27,230 nucleotides of DNA, taken from NCBI GenBank assembly GCA_028687525.1, contig JAQTZX010000001.1:1-27230 (forward strand), written 5' to 3'. Positions 20,901 to 22,040 of the stretch are shown piece by piece. Made by a program: the position numbers and the translations under genes. The notes under the pieces were generated by a model that was given only the letters and a program-made list of their open reading frames with translations, was not told the origin of the DNA and did not search any database. The DNA comes from Candidatus Omnitrophota bacterium (GTDB taxonomy: Bacteria; Omnitrophota; Gorgyraeia; Gygaellales; Profunditerraquicolaceae). How positions within the stretch are numbered: position 1 is the first letter of the stretch; the number at the start of each line of letters is the position of its first letter.

Positions 20901-22040
20901 CTGGAAGCGAGTAAAACGCGCTTGCGGCCCATCTTAATGACCTCTTTGACAACTATTTTAGGCCTTGTCCCTCTGGCTTTTGGTATCGGAGAAGGAGCGG
21001 AACTTCAGGCGCCTTTGGCGCTGACGGTCATGGGAGGACTAACATCCGCGGCTTTTCTTACTCTTGTTTTTATCCCCGCTCTCTACATTAATATTTGCGA
21101 AGTGTTTGAACGCAAAAGCACAGCTCTTCCGTCGTCAGAAGTTCCTTTATCTCCCCAGGAAATTAAAATCGGGATGGAAGTCACTCCGCAGGCAAGAGAA
21201 CACAGGGAGCATGCGCCGGAAGGATTTATCCGGGAATCATTTCCTTTTGCCCCGGTCAAACGAAAAACAACCGGACCCGCTATACTTGAGGTAAACTTAC
21301 CGGGACATTCTACTCCCGAGCCTAAACCGGAAACGCTTCCCGAGGTAAAACTTCCCGAACCGGCGACCCAAGAGGAAAATCATGAACCCGGGACTCCGCA
21401 GGCTCCGGCAATCGAACCGGGATTACCGGCACAGGAACCGCTGACCGGGCCTCAACCGGAAACGTTTCCCGAGGTAAAGCTTCCCGAACCGGCGACCCAA
21501 GAGGAAAATCATGAACCCGGGACTCCGCAGGCTCCGGCAATCGAACCGGGATTACCGGCACAGGAACCGCTGACCGAACCTCAACCGGAAACGCTTCCCG
21601 AGGTAAAGCTTCCCGAACCGGCGACCCAAGAAGAGAATCATGAACCCGGGACTCCGCAGGCTCCGGCAATCGAACCGGGATTACCGGCACAGGAACCGCT
21701 GACCGAACCTCAACCGGAGATACTTCCCGAACCGGCGATCCAAGAGGAGAATCATGAGCAAAAAACGCTCCCGACTCCGAGGCCGGAACAGCAATCCGCA
21801 ACTCCGGTACAACCGGCTTTCGGAACAGAACAAAAATCGGAATCAGAACTCAATCCGCGCCAAAAAGATATCCTCGAGAAACTAAAAACCCTGAAGAAAA
21901 TCACGCGTAAAGACTACGCCCGGATGTGCAATATTTCCATACCCACAGCCGCCCGGGATCTAAAAGAAATGGTGGACAAAAAACTACTCCAGCCTCAAGG
22001 GCCTCTGGGGCCCGGACGCTGGTATGAATTAACCTCATGA
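17961..22040 (+). CDS. RND efflux permease (AcrB/AcrD/AcrF family) with a ~305-aa C-terminal Pro/Glu tether ending in a winged-HTH domain, 1359 aa
   Basis: MSLPRLSINKPVTT, PEEIESLITKIIEE, GMVVDSANIVIENI, GIAVNNGIVL, RLRPILMTSLTT. Tail LNPRQKDILEKLK..KKITRKDYARMCNISIPTAARDLKEMVDKKLL.P.GPLGPGRWYEL. Confidence 0.93.
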   Translation: MSLPRLSINKPVTTFMAFAGIILLGYISLSKLPLALFPTITYPQITVVTSYENAAPEEIESLITKIIEEATGTVNNVKRISSISKEGLSLVMVEFNWGTNMDFAALNVREKIDLVKEKLPREAQEPIVMKYNPFDLPIMNLAVTGPLSALELREISRKYIKDAIEKIEGVASATISGGDEREILVEIDQPRLRASQISIVSVVDSLKAANMNYPAGTLKESFYEYLIRTMGEYQKVGEIQETPTALDIPEENAKTQQEKEEKEKQSRRLVFLKDIAKTKDTVKEKTSIARYNGKDSVSLVIRKQSGANTINVVRGIKKEIDKILAEKLPKGVKIQATYDQSQFIQEAIGNVRDAAVQGGILSFIVLFLFLWELKSSLIIMTAIPVCIAATTMLMYFSKIDLNVMSLGGLAMGVGMVVDSANIVIENITRYRQQLNKSFKDSIVEGADEMFPAIVGSTLTNIAVFLPFAFVIGIAGQIFKQLSFTISFSLVASILVAVSLVPALVSVWGESKNQKWITAKVDRATEKITGRFKQFVDILLQRRNTVISIITIIFVMSVFLLFTMERQFLPRVDQRQFIIKVDLPPGSRLETTDSAVRKVERLLLEIPETKDVTVNIGSSEEKVSAQETALQTLGTHQAQIMINLKKKSKKEGITRSTEDVIQILKTGLDKENMQGAEIEYVAQENSLGASLTANAPVVVEIKGPDLNTLTEISAYIQSRVKKIPGTYGIKTNMPQPSPETKLHILKDRASLYGLSVQDIAVTAQVALKGYVATKFKDKASQEDIDIKVRLRTQDREDLSNLRRLLIHSPLGMDIFMSEVAYLTKGVGPTEIKRTDQQRSIMVTANSYQRSLGQTIKEVSALTGAVRTKLPKDYSLEMAGEQQRMQESFSSLIFALILAFTLVYMIMAAEFESLWQPLLIMFTIPLSLIGVALILFITRTPLSVVAYLGIIMLGGIAVNNGIVLIEFVNNLRAKGYSPYDAALEASKTRLRPILMTSLTTILGLVPLAFGIGEGAELQAPLALTVMGGLTSAAFLTLVFIPALYINICEVFERKSTALPSSEVPLSPQEIKIGMEVTPQAREHREHAPEGFIRESFPFAPVKRKTTGPAILEVNLPGHSTPEPKPETLPEVKLPEPATQEENHEPGTPQAPAIEPGLPAQEPLTGPQPETFPEVKLPEPATQEENHEPGTPQAPAIEPGLPAQEPLTEPQPETLPEVKLPEPATQEENHEPGTPQAPAIEPGLPAQEPLTEPQPEILPEPAIQEENHEQKTLPTPRPEQQSATPVQPAFGTEQKSESELNPRQKDILEKLKTLKKITRKDYARMCNISIPTAARDLKEMVDKKLLQPQGPLGPGRWYELTS
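21327..21758 (+). repeat. Three 129-bp (43-aa) tandem repeats plus a partial fourth, in the RND tail
   Basis: Units begin at 21327, 21456, 21585 and 21714 (PETLPEVKLPEPATQEENHEPGTPQAPAIEPGLPAQEPLT[G/E]PQ). Confidence 0.92.

Follow-up and report, generated by a model that had tools for sequence, protein, structure and literature searches.

The control of efflux pumps is ascribed to two-component systems or to repressors that are soluble proteins in their own right. The permease examined here, called RND1, belongs to the resistance-nodulation-division (RND) transporters and carries a winged helix-turn-helix (wHTH) domain at the end of its own chain. Its gene lies in a 27,230-nucleotide stretch of DNA from Candidatus Omnitrophota bacterium (assembly GCA_028687525.1, contig JAQTZX010000001.1), hereafter the window, which is an entire 27.2-kb contig of a metagenome-assembled genome (1.31 Mb, 71% complete). 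The fusion of transporter and wHTH is confirmed as real rather than artefactual, and it is fixed. Comparison of related loci gives a slightly better than even chance that the RND1 pump doubles as a sequence-specific regulator anchored in the membrane, and probably as a repressor.

By analogy, the functionally nearest known systems are ToxR, TcpP, and CadC, which are membrane-integrated one-component transcription regulators (PMC8546550; PMC7496328), although RND1 is not a member of that family. As in those proteins, a cytoplasmic wHTH is covalently joined to a membrane anchor (here through a conserved in-frame fusion) and would have to find its promoter from the membrane, and the candidate targets are direct repeats just 5' of or beside the -35 element. 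In contrast, ToxR, TcpP, and CadC are single-pass proteins with an N-terminal wHTH of the OmpR/PhoB type and a small periplasmic sensor. The anchor of RND1 is instead a trimeric transporter of about 1045 amino acids (aa) with 12 predicted transmembrane (TM) helices, whereas its wHTH is C-terminal, resembles the Fic/DeoR type, follows a disordered tether of 32-373 aa, and is predicted to bind DNA.

Small, terminal wHTH domains appended to proteins that are not regulators are also present in Fic2 and DIP2311, in which the partner domain is an enzyme and not, as in RND1, a membrane transporter. Fic2 binds DNA without a known sequence preference, whereas the domain in Omnitrophota is found together with a particular 9-mer, ACCGTATCA. 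Among transporters, MdtABC and MuxABC are heteromeric RND pumps with two permeases, and the former contains an MdtB2C1 heterotrimer (PMC7015380). Similarly, RND1 and its neighbor RND2 are adjacent paralogous permeases that are accompanied by one adaptor and one outer-membrane factor (OMF). However, the Mdt and Mux subunits have no DNA-binding domain, and the RND1-RND2 pair probably reflects an independent duplication, since the scores of 360 and 367 bits against the NCBIfam MdtB and MdtC models fall far short of the equivalog cut-offs (1584 and 1774). Separate repressors of efflux operons include the TetR-type AcrR and the MarR-type MepR (PMC3936728). The logic proposed for RND1 is comparable in that a helix-turn-helix (HTH) protein would act on the promoter of a pump operon, and the fold of its domain resembles the wHTH of MarR. 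Even so, AcrR and MepR are soluble, separately encoded, and released by pump substrates, whereas the RND1 wHTH lies within the pump polypeptide and has no ligand-binding part.

A literature search found no description of an RND-HTH fusion, although absence there is no proof that such proteins are undescribed, and public annotations of the fused proteins read "efflux RND transporter permease subunit" only. What appears to be new is the candidate operator, the geometry of its promoter, the control provided by sister operons, the dissociation of the motif from ROK and Zn-ribbon genes, and the sites found outside the operon and within genes. If the proposal is true, a pump with its own DNA-binding domain would represent a new build of membrane-anchored regulator, in which transporter and one-component regulator form a single chain, and would tie transcription of the genes for a membrane machine directly, by autoregulation, to how much of that machine is present. 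It would also give the Omnitrophota, for which we know of no cultured, genetically tractable representatives, a first regulatory motif and a small candidate regulon. The case is unusually testable, with a domain of 62-68 aa, a repeated 9-mer site, and sister operons without tail or site that serve as natural controls.

The permease and its C-terminal domain

RND1 is a full-length RND permease by its match to the Pfam family ACR_tran (PF00873; E 2.9e-245; 816.9 bits against a gathering cut-off of 28), which covers profile positions 3-1019 of 1021. Within NCBIfam, generic RND_permease models alone were matched, all of them below cut-off. AcrB is the established reference for the topology of RND permeases, and the end-to-end alignment with an AcrB-type profile predicts 12 TM helices and two cytoplasmic termini for RND1. 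The 315 aa that remain after the last TM helix include an acidic linker (20% Pro, 18% Glu, net charge -30), an in-frame repeat whose 36-aa core is identical at aa 1127-1162, 1170-1205, and 1213-1248, and the wHTH (Table 1). An initial annotation of this DNA had described region 21117-22040 (aa 1053-1359) as a tail of 43-aa repeats ending in a domain of about 62 aa, and the open reading frame, the repeat analysis, and the fold analysis all bear out that architecture.

That annotation had also named sequencing reads as a means of confirming the junction, and here the outcome is divided. Contigs from three landfill-metagenome runs match the repeat flanks (20900-21380 and 21676-22300) at 99%-100% identity, which confirms the flanks, but the same contigs end inside the repeat and thus do not bridge its 3.2 copies. 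Unitig depth in the public runs is 9-20 for the repeat versus 4-6 in its flanks, as would fit a repeat present in several copies. Because the unit is 43 codons long, the reading frame is kept at any copy number.

A Pfam scan of the last 62 aa returned HTH_DeoR only below threshold (E 0.0075-0.033; 14.4-16.4 bits versus a cut-off of 21), and a precomputed PF08220 match is present on some of the orthologs. The chain stops 2-3 residues past the wing, and the DeoRC sugar-phosphate effector domain is absent. Membership of the tail in the DeoR family was rejected on both of these grounds, the subthreshold score and the missing effector domain. An AlphaFold2 model built with an alignment of 37 orthologous domains has a mean predicted local distance difference test score of 90 and the order H1-H2-H3-beta-wing-beta (helices 8-20, 25-32, and 36-48 and strands 52-55 and 63-66 of the model). 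On the strength of this model, the C-terminal domain of RND1 is a wHTH. Foldseek scores (TMq) of 0.77-0.83 were obtained against MarR, CadC/ArsR, Fic2 (8cil), and DIP2311 (3lmm), the last of which we take to be a protein of the AlbA/RecG-C type; ESCRT-II is also among the fold matches. In a profile search, the top match in the PDB was the wHTH of Coxiella Fic2 (8cil; E 1.8e-4; 30% identity). The likeness to the C-terminal wHTH of Fic and AlbA/RecG-C proteins that had been noticed initially is therefore upheld both by the sequence match to 8cil and by fold scores of about 0.8 to 8cil and 3lmm. The Fic2 wHTH of Coxiella burnetii binds double-stranded DNA (PMC10628234).

Fifteen columns are invariant among the 37 orthologous domains, including T-A-A-R-D-L in the recognition helix and G-P..G-R-x-Y in the wing. 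The net charge of the domain is basic in 86 of 86 orthologs (+3 to +10, median +6).

The same type of wHTH was also seen outside full-length permeases. Four weak copies occur in a giant protein of 2918 aa (P0118), and short proteins (P0121, with 128 aa, P0098, and P0104) have N-terminal parts that resemble a 4Fe-4S ferredoxin, an endonuclease III fragment, or a lipoprotein signal. Some of these short or giant proteins may be chimeric gene calls.

Conservation of the fusion

A word-indexed search with the last 75 aa of RND1 yielded 88 clusters of proteins about 1140-1475 aa long, and ACR_tran is present in all of them, so that the combination of ACR_tran with an HTH for which an architecture search had been suggested is indeed recurrent. 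An exhaustive search of representative proteins for the wHTH gave 210 matches. Most of the short matches that were checked are C-terminal pieces of permease genes, and among these checked matches no separately encoded wHTH with its own start codon could be verified. In the species genomes of GTDB, 117 stretches encode the wHTH, and 80 of these were analyzed as loci. Most are labeled Omnitrophota; the rest bear automatic labels of the Planctomycetia type, and one is labeled Patescibacteria.

Among 77 loci that cover the permease body, 74 encode it in a single open frame with the wHTH. The exceptions consist of two gaps filled with N (L093 and L099), one in-frame stop (L086), and one frameshift in the body. 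Three of these (L093, L099, and L086) were considered as instances of a separately encoded HTH and rejected, given the N-gaps in the first two and the lone same-frame stop in the third. The stop in L086 (9980-10010) lies two codons ahead of the wHTH, and the frame otherwise continues; a nonsense allele, read-through, and a sequencing error are all conceivable explanations.

The same picture emerges from 60 related genomes, in which orthologs (at least 64% identity) without exception have the long frame or run into the end of a contig, and paralogs (at most 38% identity) are always tail-less proteins of about 1040-1060 aa. In a genome of the same genus, the RND1 gene is spread over two contigs, with the break between permease body and wHTH. 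The claim of a fusion has consequently survived the finding that would have undone it, namely orthologs with no HTH or with one encoded by a gene of its own.

Compared with the window protein, orthologs have a median identity of 69% in the wHTH and 70% in the body, which argues that selection acts on the domain as strongly as on the transporter. The linker, by comparison, varies from 32 to 373 aa in 86 orthologs (median 73), and its sequence is not conserved. Its length apparently evolves freely while wHTH and body are held, in agreement with the earlier view of a tether whose length changes and whose frame is kept.

A candidate operator for the pump genes

The 9-mer ACCGTATCA is found in the window as a tandem pair beside the promoter of the OMF gene, as a third copy in the leader of that gene, and as eight exact copies within a gene for a large secreted protein (Table 1). 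The window contig holds 11 of the 30 exact copies in the 1.31-Mb genome, and it contains 18 sites with at most one mismatch versus 4.5 expected. Across the 80 loci (1.05 Mb), there are 73 exact copies versus 8 expected, and nearly all of these lie immediately 5' of the OMF gene, on the same strand as the gene. Region 6523-6606, which had been singled out at the outset for DNA-binding assays, indeed contains a conserved candidate operator.

The layout of pair and promoter is common to 25-31 loci. In the 25 loci with the shared layout, the copies of a pair are mostly 2 nt apart, equivalent to an 11-bp period, and the promoter TTGACA-17-TATACT is near-invariant. The spacer between the pair and the -35 element falls into classes of 1-3, 9-12, and 18-21 nt, which are roughly one helical turn apart as seen by eye among related loci. 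Fourteen loci carry a third exact copy at +66 of the OMF coding sequence, where it is in frame and reads T-V-S, and one divergent family has a copy within the spacer between the -35 and -10 hexamers. Similarly, the eight intragenic copies in the window are all in frame and read T-V-S or D-T-V, which points to a constraint at the DNA level inside coding sequence.

Several loci have copies of the repeat in other settings. In other wHTH-positive families, a tandem pair lies 4-5 nt 5' of the parA start in L102, L109, L110, and L112 (~4001-4020), in the order yidC, pair, parA, parB, ndk, yicC, and in L119 and L120 (~3950-4200) six or seven copies are clustered at the 5' end of yidC. The origin-proximal region is a possible target. 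In L107 and L108 (~4090-4200), as well as in L126 and L127 (5' of the OMF gene), ACCGTATCA pairs are immediately followed by the gene for a small, conserved membrane protein (MxxxxKFLxxxxxIFKVLxW...), behind which some genomes encode a FIST protein and a GAF-histidine kinase.

Table 1. Coordinates of features in the 27,230-nucleotide window
Feature	Position	Strand	Description
Intragenic ACCGTATCA copies, eight, exact	Starts 3428, 3880, 3904, 5258, 5270, 5341, 5555, 5572 (3428..5580)	both orientations	In gene for 1869-aa secreted NosD-like protein
c-di-GMP-I (cyclic di-GMP) riboswitch	5794-5908	-	Rfam 68.5 bits, above gathering; leader of 1869-aa secreted-protein gene
Zn-ribbon protein	6079-6402	-	107 aa; N-terminal CxxC...CxxxxC, basic tail, no Pfam family
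Candidate operator	6524..6542	+	Two direct ACCGTATCA copies, 1 nt apart, 7 nt 5' of -35
Promoter	6550..6578	+	TTGACA 6550-6555, 17-nt spacer, TATGCT 6573-6578 preceded by TG
Third ACCGTATCA copy	6598..6606	+	OMF 5' leader, just ahead of ribosome-binding site
OMF with N-terminal TonB_C	6617..8551	+	Pfam OEP E 4e-31, TonB_C E 4e-18
Perfect 28-nt inverted repeat	8570-8643		Flanked by A and T runs; directly 3' of OMF gene
c-di-GMP-I riboswitch	9011-9146	+	Rfam 51.8 bits, above gathering; leader of unit with permease genes
Prepilin-type protein	16029-16541		170 aa; N_methyl E 8e-5; between secreted-protein genes and permease genes
RND1-wHTH gene	17961..22040	+	1359 aa; permease, linker, and wHTH in one frame
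RND (ACR_tran) permease body	17973..21092	+	aa 5-1044; Pfam PF00873
Pro/Glu-rich acidic cytoplasmic linker	21093..21851	+	aa 1045-1297, 253 aa
In-frame tandem repeat	21316..21730	+	Period 129 bp (43 aa), 3.2 copies, 95% matches, no indels; Tandem Repeats Finder
Basic wHTH	21852..22037	+	aa 1298-1359, C-terminal 62 aa
wHTH elements (model)	H1 1299-1311; H2 1316-1323; H3 1327-1339; wing strands 1343-1346, 1354-1357 (aa)		H3, recognition helix (SIPTAARDLKE)
RND2, tail-less partner permease	22037..25387	+	1116 aa; start overlaps RND1 stop by 4 nt
Periplasmic adaptor (MFP)	25413..26702	+	Pfam HlyD_D23 E 4e-29; NCBIfam RND_mfp 209 bits versus cut-off 94.9

Co-occurrence of motif and domain

Motif and wHTH were searched for in the same 301 Omnitrophota genomes, of which 33 have the wHTH and 268 do not. 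Exact tandems of ACCGTATCA occur in 16 of the 33 wHTH-positive genomes and in none of the 268 negative ones; for degenerate tandems (ACHRTATCA), the numbers are 20 of 33 and again 0 of 268. A reversed-pattern control gave no exact match and one degenerate match. Within the family to which the window belongs, the wHTH is found in 6 of 41 genomes, and a tandem is present in five of these six and in none of the other 35. Of the 13 wHTH-positive genomes that lack a tandem, 9 belong to three lineages (f15, f20, and f36), and all seven wHTH-positive loci examined from these lineages have the 9-mer or near-copies of it at other spacings or in other orientations. Tandems are also located outside the pump operon in wHTH-positive genomes (parA, yidC, and the FIST/GAF-histidine kinase unit).

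A sister clade provides a natural control. Its RND1 is tail-less and 57%-60% identical over the first 500 aa, and four distinct sister loci keep the synteny of Zn-ribbon gene, OMF, MFP, RND1, and RND2, with the ROK gene in three of the four. These tail-less loci contain no exact and at most one degenerate ACCGTATCA copy in the 15 kb of each. No copies were seen in a fifth sister locus (L131), in which Ns mask the sequence ahead of the OMF gene.

Other candidate readers of the motif were considered. A ROK-wHTH regulator is encoded directly 5' of the operon in many loci, but it was rejected because it is found in 249 of the 301 genomes regardless of the motif and is kept in three of the four motif-less sister loci. 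The Zn-ribbon protein was rejected as a universal reader because four genomes (94%-97% complete) that contain the motif gave no match to it and motif-less sister loci do encode it. By this comparison, the RND1 wHTH is the sole domain of DNA-binding type that always accompanies the motif. Since the operator belongs to the operon, shared inheritance could explain their co-occurrence. Three observations seem to go beyond it, however: the off-operon tandems, the tail-less sister control, and the dissociation of the ROK and Zn-ribbon genes from the motif. Recognition helix and ACCGTATCA are both nearly invariant across the loci examined for covariation.

A proposed mechanism and its alternatives

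The features described above can be assembled into a model in which an acidic, disordered, and variable tether carries the basic wHTH at the cytoplasmic C terminus of RND1, which would make the pump a membrane-anchored DNA-binding protein. The wHTH would recognize the 9-mer ACCGTATCA. Each RND trimer would have three tethered wHTHs to offer, but only two if it is a 2:1 heterotrimer of RND1 and RND2 comparable to MdtB2C, in which case these two would face the direct-repeat pair. Two or three wHTHs per trimer would match the two or three same-strand copies that lie one helical turn apart. The domains of one pump trimer could thus bind repeats with an 11-bp period beside or inside the OMF promoter and, where a third copy exists, that copy as well, in the leader or the early coding region. 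Bound wHTH would most likely repress, so that the number of pumps in the membrane feeds back on the synthesis of pump parts. The target of this feedback would be the OMF gene in the window and, in the other type of operon, the whole OMF-MFP-RND1-RND2 unit, which would amount to true autoregulation. The same domain might visit a small envelope regulon, consisting here of the giant secreted-protein gene and in other families of the yidC-parA junction and the unit of small membrane protein, FIST protein, and histidine kinase.

The sign of regulation is the weakest step of this proposal. Occupancy of the sites probably represses, a preference based on a promoter that is near consensus, on the copies that flank it, and on the family with a copy between the hexamers. 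Activation is not far behind as a prospect, though somewhat short of even, and the helical phasing of the spacers would suit an activator also. Further points weigh against a sequence-specific repressor. Binding of DNA, and of the motif, by the wHTH is a prediction from comparative evidence, and the co-occurrence is largely shared inheritance, with related genomes that are not independent samples. Another regulator that travels with the operon may read ACCGTATCA. In the window, it is not obvious that the motif-bearing promoter serves the permease genes, and a simple repressor would not usually have sites within coding regions or right at the parA start codon. Finally, the nearest characterized relative, the wHTH of CbFic2, binds DNA without sequence specificity and with contributions from other parts of the protein (PMC10628234).

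This last point lends itself to a different interpretation, in which the RND1 domain binds DNA weakly or nonspecifically and tethers the nucleoid or nearby DNA, for instance in membrane-proximal expression or chromosome anchoring, while some other co-travelling regulator reads the motif. Besides the generic binding of double-stranded DNA by CbFic2, the strongly basic charge of the wHTH is in its favor, and the motif sites at the yidC-parA junction and within coding regions fit tethering better than promoter control. We nevertheless consider it unlikely, as recognition helix and wing hardly vary within the phylum, which is expected of a fixed sequence target, no other DNA-binding protein is conserved in the operon once the ROK and Zn-ribbon proteins are dissociated from the motif, and the motif is absent from the 268 wHTH-negative genomes. 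A role without any nucleic acid binding, with the winged helix acting as a protein-protein module that recruits a cytoplasmic partner, is more doubtful still. Winged helices can mediate protein contacts, ESCRT-II is among the fold matches, and the Pfam HTH scores are subthreshold. Against these considerations stand the basic charge in all 86 orthologs, the placement of conserved residues on the recognition helix and wing, the DNA-binding proteins that make up the best sequence and fold matches, and the tight co-occurrence of a DNA motif with the domain.

It had also been suggested initially that the pump and a one-component regulator are combined in one chain that either reaches DNA directly or releases its domain by proteolysis, coupling transport state to transcription. 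The fusion, the wHTH fold, and the candidate operator stand, whereas neither transport coupling nor proteolytic release gained any support. Coupling is hard to picture across a disordered linker of such variable length. Release through regulated proteolysis, which would turn the wHTH into a soluble transcription factor, could be eased by a long disordered linker that is accessible to proteases, and one locus (L086) has an in-frame stop just ahead of the domain. It is improbable nonetheless, because the linkers share no common cleavage motif and conserve neither sequence nor length, no protease is conserved in the operon, and the short matches checked were mostly permease fragments, with no verified wHTH gene that has its own start. 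By far the least credible explanation is that a pump gene and an independent gene for a small regulator were merged in error during assembly or gene calling. The public contigs from the source runs do break within the repeat, and the gene of the same-genus genome is split over two contigs, but the frame is uninterrupted in 74 independent loci from many studies, both repeat flanks are confirmed in three runs, and a 129-bp unit cannot disturb the frame whatever its copy number.

If RND1 is a sequence-specific, membrane-anchored regulator, a broader role can be imagined for it in the ultra-small cells of Omnitrophota. The pump would be a membrane-embedded transcription factor with a regulon, holding its own operon, the secreted-protein gene, and yidC-parAB at the inner membrane and coupling pump abundance to envelope-gene expression, perhaps with membrane-proximal expression or positioning of the origin region. 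This extension is speculative and, taken as a whole, rather unlikely to be correct.

Operon context and additional observations

Wherever the flank is long enough to show it, RND2 is encoded directly 3' of RND1. The tripartite context expected of an RND pump is complete, with MFP and OMF genes both in the window and synteny kept in about 80 loci. No protease gene was found to be conserved in the pump operon across the compared loci. Two types of operon can be distinguished, the first with the order OMF-MFP-RND1-RND2 and the second, to which the window belongs, with OMF, several secreted proteins without an assigned role, a pilin-like protein, and then RND1-RND2-MFP. The motif-bearing promoter of the window appears to drive the OMF gene only. 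A hairpin follows that gene, and the permease genes appear to lie in a separate unit led by a c-di-GMP riboswitch. In loci of the other type, this promoter stands at the front of the entire pump operon.

The hairpin at 8570-8643 looks like a bidirectional terminator, and a similar hairpin is found 5' of the operator in L023. The Zn-ribbon protein is kept beside pump operons with or without the wHTH, and the window protein is 44% identical to the copy in L132. The OMF of clade B, of which one example (L048) was scanned, also has TonB_C, and the OMFs of the tail-less sister loci list OEP only.

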